This document shows positions 4,318 to 31,142 of a stretch of 64,000 nt of DNA, in pieces. A model generated the notes under the pieces. The model was not told the origin of the DNA. It saw only the letters and a list, made by a program, of their open reading frames with translations, and did no database searches. Source of the DNA: a virus. A program made the position numbers and the translations under genes. The stretch lies in IMG/VR virus record IMGVR_UViG_3300050343_000285, positions 1 through 64,000 of that record; one strand, 5' to 3'. How positions within the stretch are numbered: position 1 is the stretch's first letter; each line of letters begins with the position of its first letter.

Positions 4318-4321
4318 AAAG

Positions 4322-4394: not shown

Positions 4395-4400
4395 GTAGCA

Positions 4401-5740: not shown

Positions 5741-5748
5741 AATAAGAA

Positions 5749-5797: not shown

Positions 5798-5804
5798 ATT
5801 CCGA

Positions 5805-6065: not shown

Positions 6066-6252
6066 GGTGAAATCTCCAAAAGTAAACCAAACTTAGTAAC
6101 TCGCACAGTGCTTGTCACTTATAATATCATTCTACCATATATTATCGTCATGTCAACCTTAATAACTTGAGGAAAGGTAAAAAAATAATCTCTCGTAAGT
6201 CGTTGATATAAAACAACTTAGGCATGCTGCGTGCGGCCGTTTTTACAGAAAG

Positions 6253-6590: not shown

Positions 6591-6601
6591 TATGTATTGT
6601 A

Positions 6602-7508: not shown

Positions 7509-7601
7509 AATTATCTCCTTCTCCCTAGTATACATTATCGGCATTATATTGTCAAGAACTTTAGTAATTTCGCTGACTGCACCATTGCCACCAATCCTAT
7601 A

Positions 7602-7822
7602 GGATAGGGTGAGACATAATAGGACTTAGGCATTACTCGTACTAGAGCAACTCTTTCCCGTATACCTGTCAGGCTGCCAAGGTGGTATACGCCCTATCCA
7701 TCTTAATGTACGGCCATCGCACTAGGGACTTGCACCCTACAAGTATCTCCGAATGTTTGACGACAAAGCCTTATCGTATCACAATCTTGGGCTTGAATAC
7801 TTGGGTAACTCTTCCGTGCCAT
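7602..7822 (-). ncRNA. second structured non-coding cassette: tRNA-like ~107-nt RNA (7716-7822) plus a multibranch hairpin (7602-7699)
   Basis: ATGGCAC/GTGCGAT acceptor-like stem, TAGGG-TGCAAGT-CCCTA T-arm, CAAGTATT/GATACTTG; GGATAGGG/CCCTATCC enclosing GTATACC/GGTATAC; directly downstream of promoter 7843-7870. Confidence 0.65.
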
Positions 7823-7941
7823 GTATTGTAAGTATACTATATTTATCGTCATTGTCAATAGTATTCTTTAGTATAATATAGAAATAATTATGGCACAAGG
7901 AGTGCGGCCGGGTCGCACGTAAGTCCTTATTCTACAACAAC

Positions 7942-8169
7942 TTACGTAGGGTATCCTTCTTTTCTTAAAATGTCTTTAGTTGGTACGACAAAAGTTAATT
8001 GGTCCGCATTCGTATAGTCTTTCATTCCACGCTGATCAATATACATATACTCGTCTAAAATATCATGTTTATTCATTTCATGTATCACTGTTCTACAGGC
8101 AGCGTAGGGTTGTTGACTTGTCGAATAAATTAATTGTAGAGTACCACTTGAAATATAATATTTAGCCAT
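7942..8169 (-). CDS. hypothetical protein (75 aa)
   Basis: ORF; stop codon falls inside a 29-bp inverted repeat. Confidence 0.65.
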   Translation of the reverse strand: MAKYYISSGTLQLIYSTSQQPYAACRTVIHEMNKHDILDEYMYIDQRGMKDYTNADQLTFVVPTKDILRKEGYPT

Positions 8170-8389
8170 CTATCCATACCTCCGAGTGTGAATATTCCAT
8201 ATCTATATCACATCCACCGCAAACAGGAGTTCCATTCTGTTCGTACCAATCTGGCATTATCTCAACTTCTGTACTACAGTCTTGACATATCCAAAAATTT
8301 TTTATGTGATCATCTGGTATTTTTGTAAACATTATAGGATTCTTTCTTAATGAGATGGAAACAATACGTTGCCTAATCCCTTTACGCAC
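8162..8389 (-). CDS. small zinc-ribbon protein (start probably 8332)
   Basis: CQDC...CGGC pairs. Confidence 0.65.
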   Translation of the reverse strand: MRKGIRQRIVSISLRKNPIMFTKIPDDHIKNFWICQDCSTEVEIMPDWYEQNGTPVCGGCDIDMEYSHSEVWIDG

Positions 8390-9057
8390 AAATTACAGGC
8401 TACACTATTCTTAGTAGGGGTGCAAGTAACAACACCACGACCACGACGAATCTCTGGACAAGTAATATATTTTTCTTCACCAAGAACAACCAACTTGGGC
8501 AGACTATCACGCCATTCTTGAGCCTTAACCTTTCCCCTTGGACGTTTAGTAGCAATTTTTTCGTCGCTATCGCACCATGCGAATAATTTGAAACCTACCG
8601 CTTTGGCATCGAGAACATTTTGAGCATTGTGGACACTAGCATATACAGCCATATACTTGTCCAGACTAACAAGCCGACTATCATAAATATGAGTATAAAA
8701 CCACATATCTGGCAAATTACCACCAGAGGCAAGAATACTCTCGCAAGCCCATACGATATTATCGACATATTCTACATCCAATTCTGAACCATTTTTATAA
8801 AAATCACCACGCTCATGCCAACGAATAGACTTATCTTTTTTTTCTGCGTTCACTATCATAGCACGGATTTTGTTTTTCTCCGTGATTAGATTCTGCATAC
8901 CAGCAGGACGAACACCGGGATAAATTTTTTCTAATTGTTCGGCATAACAACCATTACCTAGAAAATCACAACTAGGCGGGCATGTGTCCCCAACTGGTCG
9001 AGAAACTACAATACATTTTTCTTTACCTAGTTTATCATTACCGTTTGCTGTTTTCAT
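8347..9057 (-). CDS. phage gp88-like protein
   Basis: TCPPSC...GCYA, IRWHERGDF, WFYTH, YASVH, TCPE...C...CNLC pattern. Confidence 0.7.
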   Translation of the reverse strand: MKTANGNDKLGKEKCIVVSRPVGDTCPPSCDFLGNGCYAEQLEKIYPGVRPAGMQNLITEKNKIRAMIVNAEKKDKSIRWHERGDFYKNGSELDVEYVDNIVWACESILASGGNLPDMWFYTHIYDSRLVSLDKYMAVYASVHNAQNVLDAKAVGFKLFAWCDSDEKIATKRPRGKVKAQEWRDSLPKLVVLGEEKYITCPEIRRGRGVVTCTPTKNSVACNLCVKGLGNVLFPSH

Positions 9058-9311
9058 AATACTGCTCTCCGTGTGTGTGCTTCAAGTATATCATATTATC
9101 GTCTGGTGTCAACTAAAAACTATAGAAAAAATAAAAATAATGTTTGGCACAGAATTTGCTACACTTTCGCTGGCTATACCATATCGGCCCAGCCTTTAGG
9201 CTTAGATAAGACATGAGGTCTTTCGGCACACGGAGTGCGGCCGGTCCGCACCTAAGTCATTGCTGGGCAACAACTTAGGGCGGTTCACGGCACACACACC
9301 ACGGAAGAGAG

Positions 9312-9695
9312 TTATGCTACTGCCCAACCAAATAATGGCTTGCGGCAGTTCTTTACACGTTCGCAGTAAAACTGTCGAACATTACCATCCACTGTTTCAC
9401 ATGTTACCAAATGATTGGTACGCTGAAACTTTGGATCATTTCGACGATAGGTACTATGAGCATTCATTTTACGAATTGTCCGCTCGTCGAACTTTACAAC
9501 AGGCTCCACAACGCGAGCCAAAACACGTTTTGAGTCTCCGTGTAGAGGTTGCATATACTCAAAGTTGTATACTTCTCCAACTTGAGCATTGCACAAACTA
9601 GCACGAAAACCACCATATACAGCATAGATACCAAACGCAATCAACGCAAGGGCTCCTGCTGCTAAGATACCAGCAATCAACATTACATTATCCAT
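9312..9695 (-). CDS. hypothetical protein with N-terminal TM helix (start MDNVML)
   Basis: Hydrophobic LIAGILAAGALALIAFGIYAV; upstream sigma70 promoter 9733-9761. Confidence 0.7.
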   Translation of the reverse strand: MDNVMLIAGILAAGALALIAFGIYAVYGGFRASLCNAQVGEVYNFEYMQPLHGDSKRVLARVVEPVVKFDERTIRKMNAHSTYRRNDPKFQRTNHLVTCETVDGNVRQFYCERVKNCRKPLFGWAVA

Positions 9696-9757
9696 TATAA
9701 AACTCCTAAGTGTGAAAACCAAACCTAAAACCATTCTACCATACTCTTGACACCGTG

Positions 9758-10060
9758 TCAAGCCTTAATCGTCATTCCATCCTCAAAAGGTGTAATCCCA
9801 TTTACATACCATTCCCAATTTTCTTGGCGTACATAAAAAGGACTAAACTTATTGATTCTGTCTTTTGTCGTGGGTGATTTGTGCCCACCATGTCTTAGCG
9901 TTACGCTGTCGTCATCATGAATAGTAACAACATCCGTACTGTATAACATGAAAGCCACGCTACCATCCGGCTTGATTCTTGCGGTGGTATTATTGGCTAC
10001 CTTACGTTGCATTCTGTTAGTCTTACCTAAAACCAATTGTGTTGCTTCTGCGTGTGTCAT
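9758..10060 (-). CDS. hypothetical protein (100 aa)
   Basis: AAGGAG SD; composite promoter 10082-10110. Confidence 0.75.
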   Translation of the reverse strand: MTHAEATQLVLGKTNRMQRKVANNTTARIKPDGSVAFMLYSTDVVTIHDDDSVTLRHGGHKSPTTKDRINKFSPFYVRQENWEWYVNGITPFEDGMTIKA

Positions 10061-10184
10061 AAGTATTTCTCCTTACTTGTTATATCGTCAATTATACAGG
10101 GTAAACTTTAGTTGTCAACAGAAAAAAAAGAAAATAATTTTTGGCATACTGCGTGCGGCCTCTTTTTATGTAAGTCCTTATAGA

Positions 10185-10529
10185 TCAATCACTTACGTTC
10201 ATATCTCTGTGACCCCAAAATCTCATTTCGTTTTCTTTATCATCCCAATAGCATTGTACCTCATCTTTAGAACATAGTTCGGCTAATACAAAACCCATAT
10301 TCATACTATTGACATCTTCTAAAAACATTTCCATTTTTTCTCTAGTAGATATAAACTCCCCATCGTCTTCTTCACAATAGCCACGTAAATGATTAATCAA
10401 CATACCCTCATTAAGATTTTCAAAGTCTGGAATTATATGTTCAACAACGCGATTAAGATCTACCGCAAATTCTTCCATGGTTTTTCTCCTTAATTTTTCA
10501 AAATCAGCAACTAACAACCAACTCATCAT
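10185..10529 (-). CDS. acidic hypothetical protein (start probably ~10478)
   Basis: ORF; 3' end overlaps a 29-bp inverted repeat. Confidence 0.6.
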   Translation of the reverse strand: MMSWLLVADFEKLRRKTMEEFAVDLNRVVEHIIPDFENLNEGMLINHLRGYCEEDDGEFISTREKMEMFLEDVNSMNMGFVLAELCSKDEVQCYWDDKENEMRFWGHRDMNVSD

Positions 10530-11097
10530 CCTGTACTAAATTACGCTCTAGCATACGATCCATAATAGTATCCATAAGCCTACCATAATCATATGTTGGC
10601 TCATCTTGAAAATCAAGCCCTTCCGACGGGTGAATAATAAAGTCTAAGGTATCATGAGGTATTGATGCTGTTATCTTATCCCCACTATGTTCAAAATACT
10701 TACAAATATTATTATAACTACCTACAGCAATAGAATATGGTGCAGAAGTTTGAGTAAGTATGATGTAATCAAACATTTTTTCTATATTATAGTTTTTACC
10801 TAACTTGTTAGCAATCGTTACAGCATTGGTTTTGCCAGTACGTTTCTGGAACATTTTTTGTTGAGATTTTCCAGATACTCGTTCTTTACAAAAAGTCCAA
10901 TCGTATCCAACCTCATCTACATATTCTAGATATGGAAAAACTTTAGCATATTTTTTATCAATCAGTTTTGCTTTCATAAATCTGTGACCAGAATCATTTA
11001 AGCTGGCTCCAATGTTATGGCATTGTTGAAGTAGTTCGTGACAGCTTTTTGGACTGTTAGTTAAATAAGCTGAGAGTAAATTACTTACGGTTTTCAT
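10504..11097 (-). CDS. hypothetical protein, possible PD-(D/E)xK nuclease fold
   Basis: GYD...ERVSGK and FDYIILTQ motifs (weak). Confidence 0.6.
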   Translation of the reverse strand: MKTVSNLLSAYLTNSPKSCHELLQQCHNIGASLNDSGHRFMKAKLIDKKYAKVFPYLEYVDEVGYDWTFCKERVSGKSQQKMFQKRTGKTNAVTIANKLGKNYNIEKMFDYIILTQTSAPYSIAVGSYNNICKYFEHSGDKITASIPHDTLDFIIHPSEGLDFQDEPTYDYGRLMDTIMDRMLERNLVQDDELVVSC

Positions 11098-11159
11098 AGC
11101 GTTGTCCTTTCGTATTTAGTATCTTACCATACTATTATCGACGTGTCAATATCAAAACT

Positions 11160-11465
11160 TTATTCTTCGTAAGTAATAAATACCCACGACCACTCTCTGG
11201 TTTTTAGATTGTATTTATAATGTTTATAAACTACCCTATTGTAAATATGTCTATTGTCCACAGTGGTTTTAAGAATATCATTTTCCAGACTTATATCTAC
11301 TATATCAGAGTAGGGAAAGTCTAACAGCAAACGATAGTCGCTACTGTAAAACCAGTAGGTATTATATGTCTTATTGTATGTTCTATGGACACGTTCACCT
11401 ATATAATCTAAATCAATTACACAGTTTCCTGAAATAGCTAATCCTAAAATTAGTTTTAATAACAT
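11160..11465 (-). CDS. hypothetical protein, signal-peptide-like N-terminus
   Basis: MLLKLILGLAISGNC; AAGGAG SD. Confidence 0.65.
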   Translation of the reverse strand: MLLKLILGLAISGNCVIDLDYIGERVHRTYNKTYNTYWFYSSDYRLLLDFPYSDIVDISLENDILKTTVDNRHIYNRVVYKHYKYNLKTREWSWVFITYEE

Positions 11466-12533: not shown

Positions 12534-13022
12534 TCATTATCGACATTGTCAAGCGAAATCTTTATTTTTTTTCATAGATTGTGTCCAAGTAAATTTCCTC
12601 CGGCGTGATAACATAACCATACTCACAATTAGGGGTATACACTCCGAAATATACTTTTCCGTTGTCGTACCCTTCGAACCCGATCATCATGCCAAAGATA
12701 GTGTAGATTGTCAACATCATTTTTCTCCGTGGGTTATTGTTTCCTATATATATTATCGACTTGTCCAGGCGAAAACATTAGGATAAAAAAGAAAATTTTT
12801 GGGAATTCACTGGCTGTCGTGCTATGACAAGTGAAGCGGGAGGCTTAGGTGCGACAGAACGTATACCAACTTTGGCGGCCGGTCGAACTGCTCGTAAGTC
12901 CTTTACTGACAACAACTTACGATTACTTTATGTTAAATACTAATTTAGTAAACATATAAGCAAACAACAACACGTACCCCATCGAAACGATAGGGCCGTA
13001 TTGCTGAATGAATGGAACCAAG

Positions 13023-13286
13023 TCAAGCCACGGCTGCATCATCTTCTTCTACCTCGTCGTCTTCCGCATCTTCAGCAAAACATGCTGCGTTGATCTCATC
13101 TATATCTAAGTTGCTATCATTCCATGCTACATGGTCAGGAGTTTCCAGTGAATCCAACTCCCGCATAGTACCAACAAACTCATCATAATTAGCACAAGAC
13201 ATGCTGAGATTGTAGAGCCCTTCATCGTTAGCAATCCACAAGCAAACATTCCACGTTTCATAGTTTTCATATCCGTTGTAACTCAT
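13023..13286 (-). CDS. phage hypothetical protein (YNGYENYETWNVCLW type)
   Basis: GAGG SD; sigma70 promoter TTGACG-16-TATACT at ~13332-13359. Confidence 0.75.
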   Translation of the reverse strand: MSYNGYENYETWNVCLWIANDEGLYNLSMSCANYDEFVGTMRELDSLETPDHVAWNDSNLDIDEINAACFAEDAEDDEVEEDDAAVA

Positions 13287-16744: not shown

Positions 16745-18202
16745 CTATCCTGTTTGCCCCAACAGCTTCTTAGATCCTACTAGCTGCCTTAATTCTTGAA
16801 TAGCTCCATCATCAAATTCCATCTCTACCCCATACTCCCTTTTACATATCTCCAATAATTCCTCATCTGAATACCTATCGCCAAAATATTCAACTAACTT
16901 TTCCGCCTCTATTCCCCACCTAGATAGAGCATCTCTTCTGTATAAATCCCCTGACTTTTCTTGAATCATCTTTGGTTTATATAGACTTAAATGAAATCTC
17001 ATTGCTCTAATCGTTCCTAACTTATATGAAGTTCCTAACTTTTGATTAACTAGTATCGCTAGGTCCTCATCTGAATATTCTTCATAATTATCTCTAATAA
17101 CACTCATGGCCCCTGTTTTGTCGCAATTTTTGATTCTTTTTCTATTTTTATTGATTGATTTGCCTTTAATTTTTCTTTTCATATTGCTTACTTGACGAGG
17201 TGTTAACTTTAAATCAAATTTCTTATTCAAAGCTTCTGCTATTTTAATATTCTTTTTCCCATACCTCTCCTCACACTCCTGTACAAATTCCTGTATATCT
17301 TTTCTTTTCCATAAACCTGGTCTCATAGCTCTTTTGTTATTATATATATCAGGATACTTTTTCCTTAACCCTAATTTCTTTTCCCAGCTATATACTGCTG
17401 TAGACACACTCTTATATTTCCTTTGGCAATTTCTTTTCCATCCATATAATTCAGTCAACTTATCTGCATCTCCCTCTAACCTTACCCAATCGTTTTCGAA
17501 TCTTCTTGGAAAATCCCCTCTTTTATCAATACTATTTTCACTATGAGTACCAGCTTTTAAATGATCTGGATTATAACAGCATTTATTATTACATAAATGA
17601 CGTACCAATTCTGGGTATTCTCCATATTTTTCCCAATAAGCTACTCTATGCTTAGTTAAATGTTTTACTTCACCATTTATCCGTATTTGCACCTTACCAT
17701 ATCCTGATCGCTGAATAGCATTACTTTCTTTACAAGGTGTTGCATTATAAAAGTTTTTATTGCTATAACTAAAATTATTCTTATATGCCTTACTCTTGAT
17801 AGCTTTTTCTAACCATGGTTTAATTTTGTCCACACTAATTGCCACCCACTTATTTAATAAATTATCTTTCGCCCACTTATGCTGATACTCTCTTTCTTTT
17901 GACAAAATTTCATCTTCGCTAAAACGCTCTAGTATAACAAAATTCATTTGATATTTAGGATCGTTATAACACTCTAGTAATTTACTTGAAGTTTTATAGC
18001 TAGTATTCTTTATATCTCTTAGATGCTGTTGACATCTATATATAATATCCATACTACTACCAACATAAATTTTAACACTTTTAACATTCTTCTTATTAAA
18101 AACAATACCATACACTCCACAGACCTTTTCCCTTGATCCTAAATGTACTTTTTCAAACTTTTCTACTTGGTCTTGAGTTAGTCTTTTTTGTTTTTGGCTC
18201 AT
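16745..18202 (-). CDS. free-standing endonuclease: GIY-YIG domain + HNH (His-Cys zinc-loop) domain + C-terminal HTH-like region
   Basis: GVYGIVF...IYVGSS...YRCQQH...ILE; GYGK...HRVAY...VRHLCNNKCCYNPDHLKAGTHSEN. Confidence 0.8.
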   Translation of the reverse strand: MSQKQKRLTQDQVEKFEKVHLGSREKVCGVYGIVFNKKNVKSVKIYVGSSMDIIYRCQQHLRDIKNTSYKTSSKLLECYNDPKYQMNFVILERFSEDEILSKEREYQHKWAKDNLLNKWVAISVDKIKPWLEKAIKSKAYKNNFSYSNKNFYNATPCKESNAIQRSGYGKVQIRINGEVKHLTKHRVAYWEKYGEYPELVRHLCNNKCCYNPDHLKAGTHSENSIDKRGDFPRRFENDWVRLEGDADKLTELYGWKRNCQRKYKSVSTAVYSWEKKLGLRKKYPDIYNNKRAMRPGLWKRKDIQEFVQECEERYGKKNIKIAEALNKKFDLKLTPRQVSNMKRKIKGKSINKNRKRIKNCDKTGAMSVIRDNYEEYSDEDLAILVNQKLGTSYKLGTIRAMRFHLSLYKPKMIQEKSGDLYRRDALSRWGIEAEKLVEYFGDRYSDEELLEICKREYGVEMEFDDGAIQELRQLVGSKKLLGQTG

Positions 18203-18326
18203 ACCCAGTATCTCCTTTACTCCTGTATAAATACTATCCTTATAGTAACTAGTTTTATTATTTTTTTAATATCTTGGTGTATAATCTTAATATTGTAAGA
18301 TCAGCATTCTAATAAGGTATATAATA

Positions 18327-19673
18327 ATGGCTAATAATATAAGATTTAATTTTGGATCTAAAATGTGGGGCAAATTTCGCAAGGGAAATAATGACTCAAT
18401 AATGGATTATAAAGATACTACCTTAAACAAAAAAACACTTGACTATAAAAGTACAGATTATTTATTAGAAAGCAAAGATGCTAAAGTTATAGGCAATATG
18501 GATATTGATAGTAGTAAAAATTTTGCTATAGGAGGTAGAGTAGGGCAGGGTGATCGTGAACGTAGACTTGCTATAAAAAATGAGGAACTTAGTTATGATT
18601 TACAAGATAATTTAGACCCTTATACTTATCTTGGTAATAATAAAGTAGATAATGATGTTTTATTAATACTTAACTCACCGCATGATCCCGATCCTGCTGG
18701 TAAAACAATATTCAGTGGCGATCACTATACCACTTATCCAAATGATTATCCGCCACAAAACACGCCTTGTAATTGGTGCAGAATTCCAGATCCTGATAAT
18801 CCAGGTAAGTGTATATCTTATGAAAAGATGTATCCTTGTGCGAGATGCGATCCAAAAATGAAGCAATTCACGATCGAAGTAACGTATGATGCTAATAGTA
18901 TTAATAAGACATTGGCAGGAAAAACATTTACGCGTAGGGTTACGGTTGCTACCGGAGAAGAAATTAAACCTTCTCGTGCTTGCGAAAAATTTCAGCAAGA
19001 TTGCAAAAATTGTGTTACCTTTAATACTGGCAATGGAGTTGTTGAATGTGTCGGACAACCGCGAGCCAAAAACACACCATGCGATGAATGTATTGATGGG
19101 ACATACGAAGGTTGCGAAAGGCATGGTGCCTATACATGCGTAAACGGTGAATGTAAGCCTGATGATTGTGGTGGTGAGGTTTGTGATGAAACACAGTGCA
19201 TGTCATGTGAGAGTAAGAATCCGAAAAATCCAAAGCTGGGTAAACATTGTGTATTTCAATGTAAAGGATCAACTCCTGATTGCTTAGAAGTATTTACAGG
19301 CATGGGTCAGCCTAGACAATATGGTTGCGGTTGCGCAGTTGCGATGAATGGATGTCAAGATCCTGCTAAGCCTGACTTAGATACGGACTCTTGTAGCTGC
19401 CGTTGCGATGCAGAGGTAACTTTGATTGTCCCGTTGGGAAAAACACAAGCCCAGATATGCAATGAAGATACTAATAAACATTGGGATGGTGCGACATGTA
19501 GTTGCGTAACTCAGTGTGATCCACCATGTGAAGCTCCTGAAGTATGCGCTCAAGTTGAACCGGGCGTGTATTCGTGTATGTGTCCCGGAGAACCTGCTGG
19601 AGCTAGTAGTTTAAGCTCTAGTGTATGTTCTAATTATAGTCTCACTGAACTACCTTACTCGTTATTGCCTTAG
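18327..19673 (+). CDS. Cys-rich protein (448 aa), putative virion appendage
   Basis: Dense Cys in the C-terminal two thirds, including CSCRC; ends YSLTELPYSLLP. Confidence 0.75.
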   Translation: MANNIRFNFGSKMWGKFRKGNNDSIMDYKDTTLNKKTLDYKSTDYLLESKDAKVIGNMDIDSSKNFAIGGRVGQGDRERRLAIKNEELSYDLQDNLDPYTYLGNNKVDNDVLLILNSPHDPDPAGKTIFSGDHYTTYPNDYPPQNTPCNWCRIPDPDNPGKCISYEKMYPCARCDPKMKQFTIEVTYDANSINKTLAGKTFTRRVTVATGEEIKPSRACEKFQQDCKNCVTFNTGNGVVECVGQPRAKNTPCDECIDGTYEGCERHGAYTCVNGECKPDDCGGEVCDETQCMSCESKNPKNPKLGKHCVFQCKGSTPDCLEVFTGMGQPRQYGCGCAVAMNGCQDPAKPDLDTDSCSCRCDAEVTLIVPLGKTQAQICNEDTNKHWDGATCSCVTQCDPPCEAPEVCAQVEPGVYSCMCPGEPAGASSLSSSVCSNYSLTELPYSLLP

Positions 19674-19694
19674 TATTAATAAGTAGGAAGCTTC

Positions 19695-20528
19695 ATGTCA
19701 TATATTATCTATGGTTCTAGAATAGTTTCTCAGGTGTCTGTTAACAAGATACCTGAGGAGCCTATTATTAGCAACGACCCTAATGTTAAAGGGGTTAAGG
19801 GAAACGAACTATCTTCAGGCCACTCTAAAGAGACAGGTTCTATTGTGGGTCTGACAGCTGCTGCTGGAGCTTTACTAGGTTTTGCTAATATATCTAGTAT
19901 AGGAGGTCCGGGCACTTACACACCAGAATGTGAAGGCTTTGATGAACACCCTGATAATATGTGTGTAATTTGTTATAATGGTAGATGGACTCATTATGAT
20001 GAATTATATCCTTGCAGTCTGCATGCAGAAGGTACAAGGCCTTTTAATCTCATACCAGCTTGCTATGAGATAGATAATGCTGGTTGCCAAATTTGTGGTC
20101 CTTGTTTTCAGTGTAATTCTGATGGTGAGGGTAATTACAGTTGTGATGAGAGAGCAGTCTTCGATTCACTTACTGAGGAATGTTTAGAATGTCATAATAG
20201 TACTGAGTATTGTGGAAGTGCTCTTAGTCCTTATAGGTTTTTGTGTGAGGGTCAGGGTGAGATACCATTTTGTTGCAGTGGTACATGTATAGATGCTGCA
20301 AAAGAATGTTATTATTATCATGGAACATTTCCAAATGTTACTTGTGGCGTAGGATGTAAACCTTTTACTTGTGAAGTATGTGTAAATGGTTTCTGCACGT
20401 TTACTTGTGGAGAGTGTCAAAAATGTGATACAGGAGTTTGTGTACATGATAGTGACGCATATGATAATCAAGGAGAGCCATGTGGGAATTATGCTCAAAG
20501 TTTAATAAATGGTAAAATTATTCCATAA
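19695..20528 (+). CDS. Cys-rich protein (277 aa)
   Basis: Repeated CxxC...C units; ends YAQSLINGKIIP. Confidence 0.75.
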   Translation: MSYIIYGSRIVSQVSVNKIPEEPIISNDPNVKGVKGNELSSGHSKETGSIVGLTAAAGALLGFANISSIGGPGTYTPECEGFDEHPDNMCVICYNGRWTHYDELYPCSLHAEGTRPFNLIPACYEIDNAGCQICGPCFQCNSDGEGNYSCDERAVFDSLTEECLECHNSTEYCGSALSPYRFLCEGQGEIPFCCSGTCIDAAKECYYYHGTFPNVTCGVGCKPFTCEVCVNGFCTFTCGECQKCDTGVCVHDSDAYDNQGEPCGNYAQSLINGKIIP

Positions 20529-20609
20529 ATCCTTGACATACTTGTTTTGACCGTTATTATATTATAACGCGTTTGTTATTAATTCCCTATAGGATAAAGG
20601 AAATATTAC

Positions 20610-21212
20610 ATGAAATTAAATGAAAAAATTAGTATTCAGCCTCCTCCATATTCTGATAATGTAGGTAATGTTACTACCCCAGAAGCTATTGTGACAGATA
20701 CTCTAGCCCTTATTTTTGAAGACGATCCTCAGCGTAAGACGGTAAGTTGTAGGGTTCTAGATATTCCTGTTCCTGTTACTTTATACACCGGTGAAGCTTA
20801 CGATAAAGCAGGTGATTGGACTAAAGCCCAGCTAGAAGATCGATTAAAATCTTTAATGGGGGATAATCCAGCTAAGTTTTTACGAACATTTTTTCCTAAA
20901 ACTATGGAAGAGGATCCTCATGGACCGGGTACTCAATTAGCTAAGATGATTAAAACTCTAGGTATGCATATGAGTGATAGTTGTTCTTGCAGACGTCATG
21001 CCATCAAAATGAATGCTGAAGGAAACGATTGGTGTGAGCAGAACATTGACACTGTTGTTGGATGGATTGAGCAAGAAGCCAAAAATAGAGGATTACCATT
21101 CGTTAAAATGGTTGGTAAAGTAATGATTAATAGGGCTATTAAAAAGTCTAGAAAATTACTAGCTAATCAGCCAGTTCCAGAAAATGATGAAGATCTAGAT
21201 AACGAAGATTAA
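20610..21212 (+). CDS. hypothetical protein with GPGT...CSC...MN...WC...EAKNRGLPF C-terminal domain
   Basis: AAGGA SD; sigma70-like promoter at 20533-20560. Confidence 0.75.
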   Translation: MKLNEKISIQPPPYSDNVGNVTTPEAIVTDTLALIFEDDPQRKTVSCRVLDIPVPVTLYTGEAYDKAGDWTKAQLEDRLKSLMGDNPAKFLRTFFPKTMEEDPHGPGTQLAKMIKTLGMHMSDSCSCRRHAIKMNAEGNDWCEQNIDTVVGWIEQEAKNRGLPFVKMVGKVMINRAIKKSRKLLANQPVPENDEDLDNED

Positions 21213-21244
21213 TCTATTTTACATAAATAGAGAGATATTTTTTG

Positions 21245-21271
21245 AAGCACCTGAGAAATCGGGTGCTTTTT
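21245..21271 (+). terminator. intrinsic terminator
   Basis: AAGCACCTGA-GAAA-TCGGGTGCTT-TTT. Confidence 0.8.
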
Positions 21272-21328
21272 GTGTATATAATTATATAGCATTTGATATG
21301 TAAACGATAAAAATACAAGGGTATCACG

Positions 21329-22621
21329 ATGGCATGTTTTGAAGATGAAGCTCCAGAAGAAGAAGCACCTAAAATACCTGAATATGAAGGTAGCTTTGAG
21401 AAAAAGGAACGTATAAAAAAAGCACTTACAGGAGATATATGTTTTGCTTATGATGATGAAGCACTAGTTCAAGATGCTACAGACCCCTGTTCTTCAGAAC
21501 TTATATTTACGAAGGTAACTAATCCTGGTGAATATTCAATGAATGATGTATCGTTTTATGACAAAGCTGCTGGCGTAAAAGTTACTTCAAGATGGCAGAC
21601 AGCATCGACAAGAAAATTCGCTGTGTCATATCCTTGTAAAGCTTGTGCCAAAGGAACCGATTATGATAATCGAGCAATTGATAGATGGAAAAAAGGACTA
21701 CCTAATTCAGCATATCATCAATGCCATCGTGGCGAAGGCGAATCGGCTTATTGGGATATTTGTTGTATACAAAATCAAATACTTACAGAAGATATGAGAG
21801 GTGAAGGAATATGTGGTTATAATTCTACAGACCCTATAACATTTGATTGGGCTTGGACAAATTATAAGGGAGGTACGCCTCCACATTGCCCTGGTAGAGG
21901 AGGGGTTACTTTTATTGCTAAAACAAGGCCGAGAGTTCTATGTAAAGTAACTGCTAAGGCTTGTGTAGGCACCAAAAATGGAATTGTATGTGCGGACGGC
22001 ATAGGTAGATCTTCTAAGGCTTTCGGTGATGGAGCAGAAGCATATGGTCCGTTAGAGGGTGTAATTGAGACTGCCCCGGCAAGTGGTCCACACACATATA
22101 ATCCACAGTGTCTAGAGCTTTCAAAGCAAGATGCAGATCGACCATGTACAGGACTCGGCTTTAATAGTCGAGGAGGCTGCTATCCGTGTCCTTGGTACAA
22201 ATCTACTAAATCATGTGGATTTGGTTTTTATGAATGCAGTGCTTGGGCCCGTGTGGGCAGCGCTATGCCTGACATTCGCTGTAAGCATAATGGATTAAGT
22301 ACTTCTCCTAATTCCAGCCTTTCGTTAAAAACACTCGGAGACTTTGCTGATAAAAGTATGTTTAATGCTTTCGACATATCTTGGTGTCAAAAAGCGCAAC
22401 CAAGGAACAGTGCATTACCTTGCGCACCTGATCCTACTGTAGGTGCGATGGGGGCTTATTGTCTTACTTTAGCTGGAGCGATGAAATCAGCTGATTGGGG
22501 AGCCATAATAGACAGCGCTTATAGTCTTGCCAAGGCTGACGCTGAGAGCAAAATTTCGGGGGGATGTGACGGAAGTCCTGTCGCTACCTCTCTTGTTAGC
22601 GTAGAACTGACTTTCAAATAA
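21329..22621 (+). CDS. Cys-rich hypothetical protein (430 aa)
   Basis: Long ORF, scattered Cys; late motif at 21272. Confidence 0.75.
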   Translation: MACFEDEAPEEEAPKIPEYEGSFEKKERIKKALTGDICFAYDDEALVQDATDPCSSELIFTKVTNPGEYSMNDVSFYDKAAGVKVTSRWQTASTRKFAVSYPCKACAKGTDYDNRAIDRWKKGLPNSAYHQCHRGEGESAYWDICCIQNQILTEDMRGEGICGYNSTDPITFDWAWTNYKGGTPPHCPGRGGVTFIAKTRPRVLCKVTAKACVGTKNGIVCADGIGRSSKAFGDGAEAYGPLEGVIETAPASGPHTYNPQCLELSKQDADRPCTGLGFNSRGGCYPCPWYKSTKSCGFGFYECSAWARVGSAMPDIRCKHNGLSTSPNSSLSLKTLGDFADKSMFNAFDISWCQKAQPRNSALPCAPDPTVGAMGAYCLTLAGAMKSADWGAIIDSAYSLAKADAESKISGGCDGSPVATSLVSVELTFK

Positions 22622-22667
22622 ACGGTACAGACGTAACATTATAAGAATAATATTGAAGAGAGAATAA

Positions 22668-24062
22668 ATGATATATAATAAATTTAAAGAATCAAAAAAG
22701 AAAAAAATTACTCTTCCTATTAGAGATATATATTCTCATCAAGTTAGTAATTTAACTTACAAAGGTCTTGGAGATGGTACTACGATACAATTATCTTCTA
22801 ATATTACAAATATACCTGCTACATCTTCTTTGAAGTTTGATCAAACCGGAGGCGAAGAACCTGCTGTTGATGGAGTATTTTCAATAAACAGTAATACGTC
22901 TCAAATCTTAGATTTTTCTGATGGTAATTTAGATATAAGCAGTACCAATGTTTATCATATTATCAATTTAGCTCCTAATGTTTTTGACTCTATTGATGGT
23001 GCTTACATTCCTGGCGTTGTTAGATATACAGTTACCGCTGGTAAATTAACATCTCCTACTATATTACTAAATGGTTCTATGGAGTCTGAAGGAACATTTA
23101 CTGATGACCGAGATATATATAATTATAAACAAAACCATAACAATAAAACTTACCAAGAATATGTAAATGCTAATATTTCAGTTGATTATTTTGTTGAAAG
23201 TCTTGTAGGAACCAATGTTACAGATGCTACTATTATTATAAGTGGAGAGGGATATAAATTAGGTAGTACTTTCTATATTGATCAGTTTTATAATCTATCA
23301 GATCATATATTAAATCTGCAAACTAATAAATGTGAATTAGACAATTGTAAACTGTGCTTATCTCTCAATACAGTTTCTATTAGTGGTGGCACAGGATATG
23401 TTGTAGGTGATACATTTACAGTTCCTCCTTCACCCGGAGATGATGGTGAGATAACCGTAGCATCTGTAGATAGCAGTGGGGGTATTACTTCTACTACTGT
23501 AAGTAATGTTGGTTCTGGATTTACTTCTACTCCTTCAGTATCATATAATGGTTCTACTGGTAGTTCTGCTACTATTACCATTACTGATGATTATGGCATA
23601 TGTTATAATAATACATATTTTGAAGATGATGAAACTTATATTTCTGAGCTGACTCCGGGCGGAGACATATTATATATTAGTCAGACTATAGACTCTCCTT
23701 ATAGTATTATTACAGCCAGCGGAGAAGCTTATCTAAACGGTACTTATGAGATTAAAGCTAAAGATTCTCTTGGCGCTAATTATAGCATAGATACGCCAGC
23801 AACTGTTAATATTATAACTGAAGACATACCTAATGAAGATGTTATTATCTTTAATGCTGATGATTTTGATCTTGTTGATTTAGCATTAAAAAGTTCTGGT
23901 AATAATTTATCAACATCAAATGTAAAACTAAAATTAATTATCCATACCCCTAATAGCTTTAATATATCTGACGTTTCTTTAGATTTTATCGGGGATTTCG
24001 AAGATATAGACAAACCTGATAATTCTGATTTTACTATTACCGATCAATTTACAAGAGCATAA
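22668..24062 (+). CDS. putative virion structural protein (464 aa) with GxGY beta-repeats
   Basis: ISGEGYKLG, SGGTGYVVGDT, VGSGFTSTPSV motifs typical of phage fibre/baseplate proteins. Confidence 0.7.
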   Translation: MIYNKFKESKKKKITLPIRDIYSHQVSNLTYKGLGDGTTIQLSSNITNIPATSSLKFDQTGGEEPAVDGVFSINSNTSQILDFSDGNLDISSTNVYHIINLAPNVFDSIDGAYIPGVVRYTVTAGKLTSPTILLNGSMESEGTFTDDRDIYNYKQNHNNKTYQEYVNANISVDYFVESLVGTNVTDATIIISGEGYKLGSTFYIDQFYNLSDHILNLQTNKCELDNCKLCLSLNTVSISGGTGYVVGDTFTVPPSPGDDGEITVASVDSSGGITSTTVSNVGSGFTSTPSVSYNGSTGSSATITITDDYGICYNNTYFEDDETYISELTPGGDILYISQTIDSPYSIITASGEAYLNGTYEIKAKDSLGANYSIDTPATVNIITEDIPNEDVIIFNADDFDLVDLALKSSGNNLSTSNVKLKLIIHTPNSFNISDVSLDFIGDFEDIDKPDNSDFTITDQFTRA

Positions 24063-24074
24063 CCGGAGAAAATT

Positions 24075-25223
24075 ATGGTAAAATGTTGCAATGATAGTTG
24101 CTGTCCACCGATTAGTGACTATCTCTATTATCCTCCTAATGAGAAGAACGGTTGGCCAGAATGGGAAGTCGAGATACAGGCAATAGGAGACTATTTGCCG
24201 GGAAATCACAATGGGACATGCTGTCCTTGTCAATGGGATATAGATGGCAATGAATGCCCTGCTGCTACCCCTCATAGGTCTCCAGATGAAATAGTAGAGC
24301 TAACTAGACCTGGTAGTGGTGCGGTATACGAGTTCACCAGAAAGATCTGCGAATGCACTTGCGATCAAGAAAAAATTATGTCAAAAGTTAATTATGACAT
24401 GAGCGGTCCTTGCAATACAAAAGTTCCTTATGGTAAAGATGCGGATGGTAATGATATCTATCAATATAGATGTCCTGATTCTACACCTACTTTTAATAGT
24501 GCTAATTGTAGTTGTGAATGCACAGTTGAATCATGTCCTGCATCAGCTCCTACTTTCGTGAGTGAACTATGCTTGTGTCGTTGTGGCATTAGTCATCAGG
24601 CTTGCGTAGCAGAGACTACAGAAAGTGAAATATGTGCAGCTGACCCAGCAACTCCTGATTTTAATGGAGCTACATGTAGTTGTGTTTGCAATAAAAGTCA
24701 AGCTGATTGTGCCGCAGATGAAACATTTGATGATAGTATATGTGATTGTGTGTGCTCTAAAGTGTGTGATGATCCAGCACTTCCTGATTTAACTGATGAC
24801 TGCGAATGTGTGTGTAATGTTACAGCAGATGATTGTATGGGTAGTGATGAGTATGATAGTGCTACATGTAGTTGTATCCCTTGTAATCTTCATTGTCCTG
24901 GATGTCAGACATATGCTGATGATGCATGCGAATGCGTAGGATGCGAAAAGTGTAATGAAACTCAGTATTGTTTTGGAGATCCTGAAACATGCATTTGTTG
25001 CGGTCCTGGTACAGTAGAGTGCAATGGAGGTTGCGTTAATAATGACTGTGGGGGAGGTAAAACATTTAATTCGAGCTCTTGTCAGTGCGAATGTGATGGT
25101 GATAAAGTATTGTGCAATGAGACATGTTACGATCCTTGTCCAGAAGGAGAAGGCTTTGACCCTGATTGCGAATGTAGCTCTGCTTATGCTGAGTCTCTAT
25201 TGCATTCTTCCCTCTTACCATAA
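24075..25223 (+). CDS. CXCXC-repeat protein (382 aa, 58 Cys by hand count)
   Basis: CECTC, CSCEC, CLCRC, CSCVC, CDCVC, CECVC, CQCEC; ends YAESLLHSSLLP. Confidence 0.8.
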   Translation: MVKCCNDSCCPPISDYLYYPPNEKNGWPEWEVEIQAIGDYLPGNHNGTCCPCQWDIDGNECPAATPHRSPDEIVELTRPGSGAVYEFTRKICECTCDQEKIMSKVNYDMSGPCNTKVPYGKDADGNDIYQYRCPDSTPTFNSANCSCECTVESCPASAPTFVSELCLCRCGISHQACVAETTESEICAADPATPDFNGATCSCVCNKSQADCAADETFDDSICDCVCSKVCDDPALPDLTDDCECVCNVTADDCMGSDEYDSATCSCIPCNLHCPGCQTYADDACECVGCEKCNETQYCFGDPETCICCGPGTVECNGGCVNNDCGGGKTFNSSSCQCECDGDKVLCNETCYDPCPEGEGFDPDCECSSAYAESLLHSSLLP

Positions 25224-25232
25224 TTTTATATT

Positions 25233-25436
25233 CTATGGGGTGGGATGATTTTTCTTCCTACCTCTGTTTTTTACTATTTTTAATTTTCGTCTTTGTGCTC
25301 GCACCATATCTGTGGATATTTGATATCCTGTAATTTTGGAAAGTGTCATAGCTACAGTATTATCTGGCATATTAGGTCCATTATTTTTAATAAATTCAAT
25401 ATCTTCTTCTCTCCACTTTTTATATTTCTTAGACAT
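25233..25436 (-). CDS. small HTH/SANT-like DNA-binding protein
   Basis: KWREEDIEFI...LSKITG...VRAQRRKLKI pattern; divergent from the sigma gene. Confidence 0.6.
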   Translation of the reverse strand: MSKKYKKWREEDIEFIKNNGPNMPDNTVAMTLSKITGYQISTDMVRAQRRKLKIVKNRGRKKNHPTP

Positions 25437-25629
25437 ATTAAATCCTATACTTTACTTGGTGTAATTATATCGTATAATAGTATATTAATCCTTTTGAGAA
25501 AATGGTCAATCATGAAAAATAAAAAATACCGTAATGTAGCTCATTCTACCATTAAAGTCATTGCTTCTGAGAATATCGATATATCTCATGATCTTAATAA
25601 TAATGAGCATAAAAGTATAGCACAATTAT

Positions 25630-26289
25630 ATGAGGAAGAAAATTCCAAAGAAGAAAATCCTACAGAAGAAAACATCAAAAAAAACGAATCAGAAGAATGA
25701 AGTAGTATCAGAAGAAGAGTTTTTAGCTGTTTTAGAAAACATAAGTAAAAGACTATGCTATAAATTTAAATTTGCATATCATGATATTAATGATATGAAG
25801 CAACAAGCTGCTATTTTTGCTATAGAAGGCTTAGAAAAATATGATTACTCTAGACCATTAGAGAACTTTTTATGGACACATGTTAGGAATAGATTATTTA
25901 ATTATAAGCGAGATAACTATCAAAGGCCGGATAAGCCATGTTTAACATGTCCTTTATATAACATTAATTCATCAGATGGTAATGACTGTAATGAATTTAA
26001 TGATAAGTTTAATTGCCACGCTTATAGATCTTGGTTTCAACGTAATAATAATAAAAAAGGTATTATTCAACCATCTTACATAGATAAGATAGATCCAGCT
26101 AGTAACCAAGATTTTGTTGACAATATATCTGATCAGCAATTAATAGATTTTATAGAAGAAAATTTACCAGTTAAATATAGAAGCACCTACCTTAAGTTAA
26201 AATATGGTCAAAAGGTAGTTAAAAATGAAAAAGTGAAATTGCAGAATTTTATTAAAAAGAAACTCATACCTAAGTATAAAAATGAATAA
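25630..26289 (+). CDS. phage RNA polymerase sigma factor (sigma70 region 2) with Cys insert
   Basis: DINDMKQQAAIFAIEGLEKYDYSRPLENFLWTHVRNRLFNYKRD; CLTC...C...C. Confidence 0.75.
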   Translation: MRKKIPKKKILQKKTSKKTNQKNEVVSEEEFLAVLENISKRLCYKFKFAYHDINDMKQQAAIFAIEGLEKYDYSRPLENFLWTHVRNRLFNYKRDNYQRPDKPCLTCPLYNINSSDGNDCNEFNDKFNCHAYRSWFQRNNNKKGIIQPSYIDKIDPASNQDFVDNISDQQLIDFIEENLPVKYRSTYLKLKYGQKVVKNEKVKLQNFIKKKLIPKYKNE

Positions 26290-28655: not shown

Positions 28656-29121
28656 ACCAGATAAGAAATATAGTTTTAACATTATTATAGATACCAGAGA
28701 ACAAAAACCTTGGGCTTTTGCTGGTTGTGATACTATTAATAGAAAGCTAGATACAGGAGATTATAGTATTGAGGGGTTAGAAGAGCTTTTATGCATAGAG
28801 AGAAAAAATAGCGTAAGCGAAATAGCTAATAATATTTCTGAGGCTAGATTTAAAGCTGAGATACTTAGAATGAATGATTACTTATATAAGTTTATATTAC
28901 TAGAGTTTAGTTTACAGGATGTTTTAAAATACCCTATTGGTTCTAATGTTCCTAGACATATGTGGTCTAAAATTAAAATTAGACCTGCTTACATATTAAA
29001 GTACTTAACAGAACTACAAATTAAACATAATATAAATGTAGTATTTTGTGATAACCCAGAAGCTGCTAACCAAATGGCTTTTTCTATTTTTAAGAGAGTG
29101 AACGAATTACATGGTAAGTAA
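28645..29121 (+). CDS. ERCC4/XPF-type nuclease domain protein
   Basis: IIIDTREQ...KLDTGDY...CIERK. Confidence 0.85.
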   Translation: MTHKPDKKYSFNIIIDTREQKPWAFAGCDTINRKLDTGDYSIEGLEELLCIERKNSVSEIANNISEARFKAEILRMNDYLYKFILLEFSLQDVLKYPIGSNVPRHMWSKIKIRPAYILKYLTELQIKHNINVVFCDNPEAANQMAFSIFKRVNELHGK

Positions 29122-31142
29122 CAGCTATTTAGATAACGCATGGTTAAATATAGGCGATATAGATAAGATCAACATAGATAAAAATGTTATGATCAATCGC
29201 TCTGAAACAGATATAGAGAATCCAGATAGACATTTAGTTAATATAATTAAAGACCCAGCTAATTTTTCCATGACTGCAAAACTTTTAATGGATATAGAAT
29301 TGCATCCCATTCAAGCAGCTATTTTAGAGGAATTTTGGGATAGGCCATTCCCAATGTTTATTGCTAGTCGTGGATTTGGTAAATCTTTCTTACTTGAGTC
29401 TATATTGCATACTTTAAAATGCATTTTTGTTCCTGGTAGTAAGATCGTTGTAGTTGGTGCTGCTTTCAGACAGAGTAAAATTATTTTTGAATACATGGAA
29501 AATATGTGGCGCACTAGCCCTATAATACGTAGTATTTTTAATGGTAATGACGATGGTCCTAGAAGAGATGTAGATAGATGTACTATGCGATTATGGAGAT
29601 AGTTGGACTATTGCTATCCCTCTTGGTGATGGTAGTAAGATTAGAGGCTTAAGAGCTCATATTATTATTGCTGATGAATTTGCGTCTATTTCTCCAGATA
29701 GTATATGAGACTGTTGTATGCTGGTTTTGCTGCTGTGTCTGCTAGATCCTATGGGTAATGTTAAAGCAGAAGCTAAAAAAGAACTAATGAAAGAACTTGG
29801 CATTTGGAACGAAGAGCTAGAGTCTTTACAATATCGGAAAAGTAATCAAGCTATCATTGCAGGTACTGCTGATTATAGTTTCAAACACTTCGCTCGGTAT
29901 TGGGAGAGATATAGATCTATTATACATAGTAAAGGAGATAAGGAAAAGTTAGGTAAAATATTCCAAGGAGAAGTCCCTAATAATTTTAATTGGCAAGATT
30001 ATAGCGTTGTTAGAGTTCCATATGAATTAATACCTAAAGGCTTTATGGATGATAGACAGGTTGCTAGAGCAAGAGCTACGATACATAGTGGTATTTACAA
30101 TATGGAATATGCAGCTTGTTTTACTAAAGATAGTAGTGGATTTTTTCGTAGAAGCTTAGTTGAGAGTTGTGTAGCTAATGTTAAAAACCCTATTATTATT
30201 AATGAAGAACCTATGATTTTTGATGCTAGGGTAAAGGGAGATCCTGATAAAAAATATGTTTATGGTATTGACCCAGCGAGCGAACAGGATAACTTTTGTA
30301 TAGTAGTTATAGAATTACACCCTAATCATTCGAGAATAGTATATGTCTGGACTACCAACAGAACTAATTTTAAGAAGAGACAAAAAACAGGATTAGTAGA
30401 AGAGAATGATTTTTATGGCTTTTGCGCTAGAAAAATTAGAGAATTAATGACTGTATTTCCATGCGAAAGAATAGGCATTGACGCACAGGGAGGCGGTATA
30501 GCTATTGAGGAAGCTTTACACGATAATAATAAGCTAAAGGAAAATGAAGTTCCTATATGGCCTATTATAGATGGAAAAAAGCATAAAGATAGTGATGATA
30601 AACCAGGATTACATATTTTAGAGTTAGTGCAATTTGCTAGATCTGATTGGACCAGTCATGCTAATCATGGACTTAGAAAAGATTTCGAAGATAAAGTCTT
30701 ACTATTTCCATCATTTGATAATCTAACACTAGGTTTAGCTATGGAGAAAGATGCTCAGAATGTTATGGAAACTGATCTAGAGAATGTTTATGATACTCTA
30801 GGAGAGTGTATTTTAGAAATAGAAGAACTAAAAAACGAACTAACAACTATAGTAATGAGTCAAACTAGCAATAGTTCTGGAGCTAGAGAAAAATGGGATA
30901 CCCCAGATAATAAGGGAGCAGGAGCCAAAAGAGGTAAATTAAGGAAAGATAGATACAGCTCACTAGTTATAGCCAATTCTATAGCTAGATCTATTAGCAG
31001 AGCAGACGCTCCTGTTGAGTATGATGTTATCGGAGGTGTAGATGGTAGATATAAAGACGATAAAGAAAGTCTCTATAAAGGTCCAGCATGGTTTACAAAT
31101 GATGCTAATAATGATATATATCTTGGTATTTACAAAAAATAG
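29111..31142 (+). CDS. terL: terminase large subunit (broken by several 1-nt insertions at ~29.6-29.75 kb)
   Basis: Walker A SRGFGKS; restored frame IRGLRAHIIIADEF (Walker B); nuclease YGIDPASEQDNF...IGIDAQGGG...KDRYSSL. Confidence 0.9.

Follow-up and report, generated by a model that had tools for sequence, protein, structure and literature searches.

The BR3P repeat is defined by the motif C-X10-C-X-C-X(1,3)-C, and the heparin-binding domain of VEGF-A holds one complete and one incomplete copy of it (PMC10328876); an earlier modeling study found an entry for the VEGF heparin-binding domain, 1vgh_A, to be the closest PDB structure to the model of the Pfam family CXCXC, PF03128 (PMC8078820). 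Among bacterial viruses, a structural use of disulfide bonds is seen in the cyanophage Pam3, whose fibers are disulfide-linked to the baseplate and are detached by reduction (PMC9942802). Here we describe a cluster of six consecutive genes, g1 to g6, at positions 18327-25223 of the first 64 kb (hereafter the window) of the IMG/VR record IMGVR_UViG_3300050343_000285, a phage genome of 194,787 bp rated complete. Four of the six proteins are exceptionally dense in cysteine, three of these four end in a common C-terminal tag, and one of the three is built around tandem BR3P-type repeats. We propose, with a probability that we would put at roughly 0.45, that the cluster encodes accessory proteins, expressed late and exchangeable as a module, which are stabilized by disulfides, end up extracellularly and most likely sit on the virion surface, docked there by the common tag and serving as adhesins or receptor-binding ends.

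An initial annotation of this DNA had drawn attention to the cysteine density of the cluster and had suggested disulfide- or metal-stabilized virion filaments or adhesins that are oxidized at lysis. The observation is confirmed by the present analysis and the interpretation is partly supported; what is new here is the common C-terminal tag, an N-terminal motif, the split and fused forms of the proteins, the parity of their cysteines, the promoter box, the BR3P repeat count and the fast divergence of the cluster.

Six consecutive genes and a common C-terminal tag

The six open reading frames (ORFs) all lie on the + strand, with coordinates matching those listed by the ORF program:

18327..19673, + strand: g1, 448 residues, 36 cysteines (8.0%), one CXCXC
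19695..20528, + strand: g2, 277 residues, 28 cysteines (10.1%)
20610..21212, + strand: g3, 200 residues, 4 cysteines
21329..22621, + strand: g4, 430 residues, 24 cysteines (5.6%); no tag and no CXCXC
22668..24062, + strand: g5, 464 residues, 4 cysteines, acidic, with GxGY motifs
24075..25223, + strand: g6, 382 residues, 58 cysteines (15.2%), seven CXCXC, 19 CXC, isoelectric point (pI) 4.05

A recount reproduces exactly the counts given in the initial annotation, with four cysteine-dense proteins (g1, g2, g4 and g6) among the six and 58 cysteines and seven CXCXC motifs in the 382-residue protein. These four are the top-ranking ORFs in cysteine content among all those of at least 100 residues in the window, against a genomic background of 2.0% (median 1.8% over 180 ORFs). 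All four are acidic, with pI values of 4.05-5.7. A hydropathy scan detects neither a signal peptide nor a membrane helix in any of them, their N-termini being polar, in agreement with the earlier statement that obvious signal peptides are lacking. The highest 19-residue Kyte-Doolittle mean in the cluster (1.57) falls on residues 48-66 of g2, and the maximum in g6, whose N-terminus is polar and cysteine-rich, is 1.06. A membrane anchor at g2 residues 48-66 was considered and rejected, since homologs carry proline and lysine there and are not hydrophobic. Other cysteine-rich proteins of the genome, at 116-128 kb and 61-64 kb, were likewise considered as kin of the cluster and rejected as unrelated.

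The tagged proteins show a characteristic architecture. In g1, a cysteine-free N-terminal domain of about 145 residues with a conserved motif leads into a cysteine-rich body, containing CxxC pairs and two BR3P-like repeats, and then into the tag. The conserved cysteine-free N-terminal part of g2 is shorter, at about 78 residues, bears a motif of the g1 type and is again followed by a cysteine-rich body and a tag, here ending in IIP. g6 begins with a CC-x3-CC cluster, continues through seven BR3P-like repeats and a CxxC-rich part, and closes with a tag ending in LLP. g4 is a separate, moderately cysteine-rich family. The tag itself spans about 12 residues and consists of a tyrosine soon after the last cysteine, a serine/leucine pair, two hydrophobic residues and a terminal proline:

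19635..19670, + strand: tag of g1, last 12 residues with an LLP end; Y437, L447 and P448 are invariant in homologs
20490..20525, + strand: tag of g2, its final 12 residues; Y266 and P277 do not vary
25185..25220, + strand: tag of g6, last 12 residues; S374, L380 and P382 are invariant in seven homologs down to 33% identity

Across the genome, a hydrophobic-hydrophobic-proline ending is seen in four of 315 ORFs of at least 60 residues, three of the four being g1, g2 and g6. We also compared loci from IMG/VR and metagenomes (designated below by L numbers), on which all statements on gene order are based. In 25 related loci, seven of 352 ORFs have that ending and all seven are cysteine-rich; an eighth cysteine-rich ORF of the tagged type, in L028, ends in TIP. 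The N-terminal motif reads G-[S/G]-x-[I/M], falls among residues 1-16 and is found genome-wide only in g1 and g2, by a pattern that was drawn up post hoc. In L014 and L028 it is carried by separate cysteine-free ORFs of 100-115 residues, which lie 2-24 nucleotides (nt), a usual distance between genes, before most of the tagged cysteine-rich ORFs. The existence of both fused and split forms argues that the small part and the cysteine-rich part work together. g6 and its relatives have the tag and lack the N-terminal motif.

The remaining protein of the downstream half, g5, had been described as a fiber-like GxGY protein: the GxGY motifs are indeed present, and the fiber label is based on them and on one conserved domain; g5 has no family in Pfam, the PDB or PHROGs save for one weak match to an unnamed PHROG. 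Only a central domain of about 90 residues is conserved in it, and wherever it is present it stands directly upstream of a g6-type gene. Its neighbors in the ESM Atlas are all viral, but with template-modeling scores below 0.3, and the same resource returned nothing usable for g1. A prediction of the g5-g6 complex gave a score of 0.00, that is, no answer, and counts neither for nor against binding.

BR3P-type repeats and their structural affinities

The repeats of the cluster map to two regions:

24471..25094, + strand: repeat region of g6, residues 133-340, with the BR3P motif copies and the Pfam match at residues 328-340
19353..19517, + strand: two BR3P-like repeats of g1, residues 343-397, aligning with g6 (BLASTP E-value 0.008)

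g6 contains three strict and seven loose (spacer 9-13) copies of the BR3P motif, against means of 0.10 and 0.31 and maxima of two and four, respectively, in 2000 shuffles of its sequence; g1 has two loose copies, both in the part that aligns with g6. The Pfam CXCXC model (PF03128) recognizes residues 328-340 of g6 with 17.5 bits against a cut-off of 15, and with 22.5 bits in a six-frame search. The pass is marginal, with two of seven members of the g6 family matching at an E-value of 0.1 and g1, g2 and g4 remaining without a match. The motif scan and the Pfam match thus bear out the earlier assignment of the repeat to the BR3P/VEGF-C type, and the description of the cluster as CXCXC-repeat proteins holds for g6 and weakly for g1 but not for g2 and g4, which are different cysteine-rich folds. 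Beyond CXCXC, no Pfam family, and hence no metallothionein model, was found for the cluster proteins at E-values up to 1, and sequence searches of the PDB gave no significant row for g1, g2, g5 or g6.

AlphaFold2 predicts β-hairpin repeats for approximately residues 200-370 of g6, a span that takes in only the C-terminal part of the repeat region, with predicted local distance difference test (pLDDT) values of 67-83, the rest of the model being poor. Among 48,161 PDB chains, the best fold match of g6 is the VEGF-A heparin-binding domain, 1kmx_A (Z 3.7, root-mean-square deviation 2.9 Å over 52 of 55 residues), at a place where the model has pLDDT values of 53-73 and at a level below that which would prove a shared fold. 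Foldseek searches of the PDB with g6 returned no row at E-values of 0.001 or better, and every one of the weak rows is an extracellular cysteine-rich domain. The only match of the g2 model is the cysteine-rich part of an amoebic surface lectin (Z 2.5).

Metagenomic relatives of the g6 repeat reside in adhesin-type proteins, in one case alongside SprB and CHU_C (a type IX secretion signal), in another alongside VWA and SdrD_B, and in a third in a bacterial protein with a CXCXC match of 42 bits. A giant CXCXC adhesin is seen in the metagenome contig L011, where positions 2-11278 form one frame of more than 3,759 residues with 100 CXCXC motifs and 13% cysteine; it also has domains of the VWA and SdrD_B families, and its end is rich in proline. 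The likeness between the repeat of g6 and that of the animal BR3P proteins may stem from common descent or from convergence.

Conservation of the cluster and its fast divergence

The phage is common, with near-identical DNA in sequencing runs from 13 studies, mostly of seawater and viral metagenomes. An independent DNA assembly (run X7) yields exact contigs over 18657-19971 and 20715-25747, in which the ORFs are letter-identical and intact. In three RNA libraries, contigs cover parts of g1, g2, g5 and g6 along with structural genes. Because such contigs cannot exclude DNA carry-over the support they give is weak; neither strand nor level of transcription is readable from them, and we rejected them as proof that the cluster is transcribed. 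Parts of the cluster left uncovered in the RNA or DNA runs carry no weight either way.

All four cysteine-rich genes are conserved in related uncultured marine phages. Relatives of g6 were found at 33-78% identity, and cysteines make up 36 of the 52 invariant columns of the family; those of g1 lie at 38-77% identity and preserve 35 of its 36 cysteines. g2 has 14 relatives at 31-92% identity, and in a 15-sequence alignment (44-92%) the cysteines are invariant, as are Y266 and P277. For g4, a search of 1.84 billion representative proteins gave only four relatives, with seven invariant cysteines and the others variable. These patterns indicate that the genes of the cluster are real and under selection.

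The g5-g6 pair is retained in L003, L004 and L014; in L003 the genes for the sigma-like protein, the terminase and the portal come after it, and L004 stops just past the small leftward gene that is described below. L014, whose terminase is 91% identical, contains the whole island in the form of two g1-like units, g2, g3, and g4-like, g5-like and g6-like genes. Between it and the present genome, the flanks are 83-93% identical, whereas identity falls to 78% in g3, 52% in g2 and 38% in g5, and g1, g4 and g6 are barely alignable though still in place. The cluster is a hypervariable island inside a conserved frame.

In more distant phages, large cysteine-containing proteins of 431-1209 residues with 26-53 cysteines precede a homolog of g3:

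L030, 2607-6949: large cysteine-containing proteins before the g3 homolog
L031, 3988-6921: the same
L033, 3200-6428: the same
L035, 3350-6979: the same

They do not have the hydrophobic-hydrophobic-proline end, and an ORF at 4574-5815 of L033 and a shorter one in L032 end in CVP. These large proteins may represent another form of the same island.

Operon organization and a promoter box in common with virion genes

The initial annotation had noted a late-type promoter motif before two of the four cysteine-rich genes. We find a box of the form GTGTATA(A/T)A before g1 and g4, and also before the portal and tail genes. Together with the signals that surround g3, the elements of the cluster are:

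18277..18286, + strand: promoter-like box GTGTATAATC, 50 nt before g1, heading a g1-g2 operon
20533..20560, + strand: sigma-70-type promoter for g3 alone (TTGACA, 16 nt, TATTAT; 11 of 12 positions), kept in L014
21244..21269, + strand: intrinsic-terminator-like hairpin 3' of g3, 11 pairs and then a T run, kept in L014
21272..21282, + strand: promoter-like box GTGTATATAAT, 57 nt before g4, heading a g4-g5-g6 operon

The further copies of the box precede the portal gene (box at 31142; 59 nt), the gene at 39429 (box at 39370; 59 nt) and the tape-measure gene (box at 43576; 25 nt). Half of its ten + strand copies in the span of 18-64 kb are intergenic, and intergenic DNA makes up about 3% of that span; in the leftward early region it is missing at all but one site. 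In L014 the box is kept 53 nt upstream of the g1-like gene, 47 nt upstream of the g4-like gene and 59 nt upstream of the portal gene. The gaps between genes are short: 21 nt before g2, 46 nt before g5 and 12 nt before g6. From the position of the boxes and the separate promoter and terminator of g3, we deduce that g1-g2 and g4-g5-g6 form two operons, separated by g3, which is a unit of its own; both operons are predicted to share their promoter type with virion genes, i.e. those for the portal and tail. On the level of sequence, this bears out what the initial annotation had remarked on the promoter. The T4 late-type motif TATAAATA was considered as an alternative late signal and rejected, as its 60 copies across the AT-rich genome show no pattern.

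g3 differs from its neighbors in more than its signals, as it is the sole slowly evolving gene of the island. Its family comprises 30 IMG/VR loci at 39-78% identity, with an invariant CxC-x14-C core inside a GNDWCEQN-type stretch, and corresponds to no Pfam, PHROG or NCBIfam family. In four of the ten loci checked for gene order, relatives of g3 stand directly before the large terminase gene and have no cysteine-rich neighbor; L022 has two copies, at 7001-7597 and 12641-13192, one of which is directly before the terminase. A role for g3 as a dedicated chaperone or oxidase of the tagged proteins was therefore rejected, since its relatives precede the terminase in phages without cysteine-rich neighbors. 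It is probably not part of the cysteine-rich system, and could be a packaging or redox-active protein.

Cysteine parity

The numbers of cysteines in the families are informative as to whether they form disulfides or bind metal. In the g1 family they are 36, 36, 38 and 38; in g4 and its relatives, 24, 18 and 20; and in the g6 family, 58, 58 and 56. There are 28 in g2, in its L014 counterpart and in 12 of 13 database homologs, the thirteenth having 18 as a result of a deletion that removes exactly 10. The tagged relatives in L014 and L028 have 40, 28, 28, 48, 40, 40, 28 and 34. Even counts that change mostly in even steps, which are not multiples of four, favor disulfides over four-cysteine zinc sites. 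Of the two states allowed for by the initial annotation, disulfide- or metal-stabilized, the evidence of parity thus leans toward the former and away from the latter. Nor do the proteins resemble metallothioneins, which are characterized by fewer than about 100 residues, about 30% cysteine and few aromatic residues: those of the cluster have 277-448 residues, 8-15% cysteine and many tyrosines, phenylalanines and tryptophans.

Mechanistic interpretation and competing explanations

Based on the above observations, the following mechanism may be envisaged. The g1-g2 and g4-g5-g6 operons would be transcribed from the promoter type of the portal and tail genes, and their products would be synthesized in the cytoplasm without export signals. 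A tagged protein would comprise an N-terminal motif or adaptor, a fast-evolving cysteine scaffold and the C-terminal tag, with the adaptor fused to the rest in g1 and g2 and supplied as a separate small ORF in relatives, and with g5 possibly serving as the adaptor for g6. The scaffold of g6 and of the end of g1 would be formed by β-hairpin repeats of the BR3P or 'silk-homology' type, and the tag would dock the differing bodies at one common site. The cysteines would pair into intramolecular disulfides upon release into oxidizing seawater at lysis, or already late in infection, and the outcome would be rigid rods with variable loops.

Several observations weigh against this picture. Searches of Pfam, PHROGs, NCBIfam and the PDB matched no cluster protein to a known family of fibers, baseplates or decoration proteins, and no cultured relatives turned up among 50,697 phage records in blastn and tblastn searches with the cluster as well as with g2, g6, terminase and portal. 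Downstream of the cluster come regulatory and nuclease genes; it is placed outside the head and tail blocks, and the usual tail-tip genes are found at 56-64 kb. Overall confidence in the structural models is low (pLDDT 54 and 56), and the shortfall seen in the match of g6 to 1kmx_A extends to all the fold matches. Four distant relatives of g6 have odd numbers of cysteines (57, 55, 55 and 55), so that one thiol in each would stay unpaired. Many CxxC pairs, found in g1 and g2 and toward the end of g6, are spaced as is typical of cytoplasmic zinc sites, and a metal-bound state, perhaps a temporary one in the cytoplasm, is compatible with them. Finally, a phage thiol oxidase, for which the initial annotation had suggested a search, did not turn up: neither Erv1/ALR (PF04777) nor DsbA (PF01323) has a match in the 194,787-bp record. 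Oxidation of the cysteines would thus be spontaneous or host-dependent. The radical-SAM family (PF04055), a member of which would be expected beside genes for radical-SAM-modified, ranthipeptide-like cysteine-repeat fiber proteins, is without a match anywhere in the genome, and the only thiol-redox gene found in it is:

168025-168252 of the genome (1501-1728 of L013), - strand: thioredoxin-fold ORF (PF00085, 37 bits) with WCPYC and a hydrophobic N-terminal stretch

This stretch is a possible export signal or lipoprotein anchor.

The evidence for disulfide-containing modules of extracellular type would fit equally well if the proteins were not part of the particle at all but were made late and freed at lysis, as decoys, matrix binders or aggregation factors that bind debris, particles, polysaccharide or cells. 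The tag would then have some other common function, for example as the feature by which a folding helper or a protease recognizes the proteins. The placement of the cluster outside the head and tail blocks and the lack of a docking partner among our findings are in line with this; however, fast divergence beside a conserved tag and N-terminal motif is what one sees in parts that have one end fitted to a fixed structure, the promoter box is held in common with virion genes, and a bacterial virus would gain little from proteins diluted in seawater. We regard this explanation as unlikely. Still lower in our estimation, and distinctly improbable, is a reduced state in the infected cell, with the proteins acting as cytoplasmic metal-thiolate proteins, i.e. 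zinc-ribbon arrays or metallothionein-like copper and zinc stores. For this speak the missing signal peptides, the CxxC pairs and CxxCxxCxxC runs of g1, g2 and g6, the CC and CXC motifs of g6, as in metallothioneins, and the fact that the only PDB sequence rows of g2 are zinc-finger arrays, though with E-values of 0.15-0.6 that are not significant. It is difficult to reconcile with cysteine numbers that shift by 2, 6 and 10 rather than by fours, with relatives of the repeat in secreted adhesin-type proteins and best fold matches among disulfide domains, with lengths of 277-448 residues including aromatics and no metallothionein match in Pfam, or with hypervariable loops, which would be unexpected in a metal store.

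Two further explanations concern the tag in particular. Encapsulin cargo peptides resemble short common C-terminal tags of otherwise unrelated proteins, and a tag at the extreme C-terminus of unrelated proteins encoded near packaging and head genes might, in the style of encapsulins or phage internal proteins, load the cysteine-rich proteins into the capsid for delivery to the next host. We give this very little weight, for passage through a tail would be difficult for rigid, disulfide-prone rods with 28-58 cysteines, the relatives of the repeat are surface adhesins, and the N-terminal motif of g1 and g2 would have no role. A comparably slim chance attaches to a model in which the N-terminal motif of one subunit binds the tag of the next, giving mixed head-to-tail filaments; it puts into concrete form the filaments suggested in the initial annotation. 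As such a model would have it, the two ends of the proteins are conserved and their bodies variable, and the split forms show that the N-terminal part can stand alone; against it, g6 and its relatives are tagged yet have no N-terminal motif. Docked, disulfide-stabilized proteins of the virion surface are the preferred reading. A more specific version, which we consider rather doubtful, would have the tag and the N-terminal adaptor constitute a plug-in system, through which a phage clade exchanges unrelated disulfide-rich bodies, akin to those of extracellular matrix and adhesin proteins in animals and bacteria and including BR3P repeats, on one fixed site of the virion, and which gives rise to a matrix-like adhesive coat that matures by oxidation only after lysis. 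If true, this would amount to a phage appendage of a new class, and to a novel means of altering the binding of hosts or particles.

Were the proteins of the cluster located on the particle, it would imply that phages of the open sea build adhesive parts from disulfide-locked modules of the type found in animal and bacterial extracellular proteins, and that parts of this type can arise in a reducing cytoplasm with neither export nor an oxidase of the virus's own. A short C-terminal tag would act as a general docking signal that permits bodies to be swapped, with bearing on the evolution of host range and on the sticking of virions to particles and mucus-like matter, and it would offer a handle for display engineering. 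The BR3P or 'silk-homology' repeat, an animal motif in the literature, would extend to bacteria and their viruses.

Genes flanking the cluster

Several genes around the cluster merit mention:

16745-18202, - strand: 485-residue protein with a GIY-YIG-like motif at its N-terminus and matches to HNH endonucleases (PHROG E-value 6e-16), 66% identical in L014
25233-25436, - strand: basic ORF of 67 residues, running leftward between g6 and the sigma-like gene
25630-26289: protein resembling extracytoplasmic-function sigma factors (TIGR02937, E-value 2.4e-5, below the cut-off)
29111-31142: large terminase, split into ORFs of 163 and 474 residues

The nuclease-like gene sits where the leftward early genes and the rightward arm diverge. 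The 67-residue ORF shows 45-87% identity in all related loci that span the junction; since it is kept in every one of them, it is a real small gene, and perhaps a regulator at the island boundary. The weak rows of the sigma-like protein include a sigma subfamily of Rhodopirellula and Verrucomicrobium, and the protein may be a candidate reader of the GTGTATA box. In the terminase, a gap of 115 nt between the two ORFs encodes the Walker B region. Because the relatives have a single ORF of 671-677 residues and the contigs of other runs differ by 1 nt at 29590, 29699, 29720 and 29744, the split probably reflects sequence errors in the record. The sole match of this terminase in the 50,697 phage records is to Bacillus phages, at 29% identity.

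Comparison with known systems

The proteins of the cluster constitute an undescribed set of phage families, in which the unusual features are the BR3P-type repeat and the common docking-type tag. The nearest parallel to the repeat is the PF03128 family, as seen in the Balbiani-ring-3 protein of Chironomus, the C-terminus of VEGF-C and VEGF-D, and VEGF-A165 (PDB 1KMX). As in these, the units of g6 are arranged in tandem and have a hydrophobic-Asp/Asn pair shortly before the CXC. Unlike the animal proteins, g6 is encoded by a phage, lacks a signal peptide and is joined to a CxxC-rich part and a phage-specific tag. The heparin-binding domain of VEGF-A is basic whereas g6 is strongly acidic (pI 4.05), and spacers of 11-13 residues are common in g6.

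With regard to disulfides in viral particles, Pam3 offers a precedent for virion parts that are made in the bacterial cytoplasm and rely on disulfides in the free particle. In Pam3, however, a few interface cysteines are set in ordinary fiber and wedge folds, whereas here whole scaffolds with 8-15% cysteine would be involved. Vaccinia is comparable as a virus that needs disulfides in proteins that are not exported, for which it has the E10R-A2.5L-G4L pathway with its Erv1/ALR component; in contrast, the 195-kb phage genome contains neither Erv1/ALR nor DsbA.

In terms of genetic organization, the closest counterparts are the gp37 fiber and gp38 adhesin of T2 and S16 and the Hoc-type rods, where a carrier is paired with a fast-evolving distal protein, as might be the case for g5 and g6, and where late expression goes together with a body that varies and a docking end that is conserved. 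T4 Hoc docks via its C-terminal domain. No relation in sequence or fold was found between the cluster and gp37, gp38 or Hoc, and the docking proposed here would depend on a 12-residue tag common to unrelated bodies. The cluster is best filed among the accessory adhesin or decoration modules of phages.

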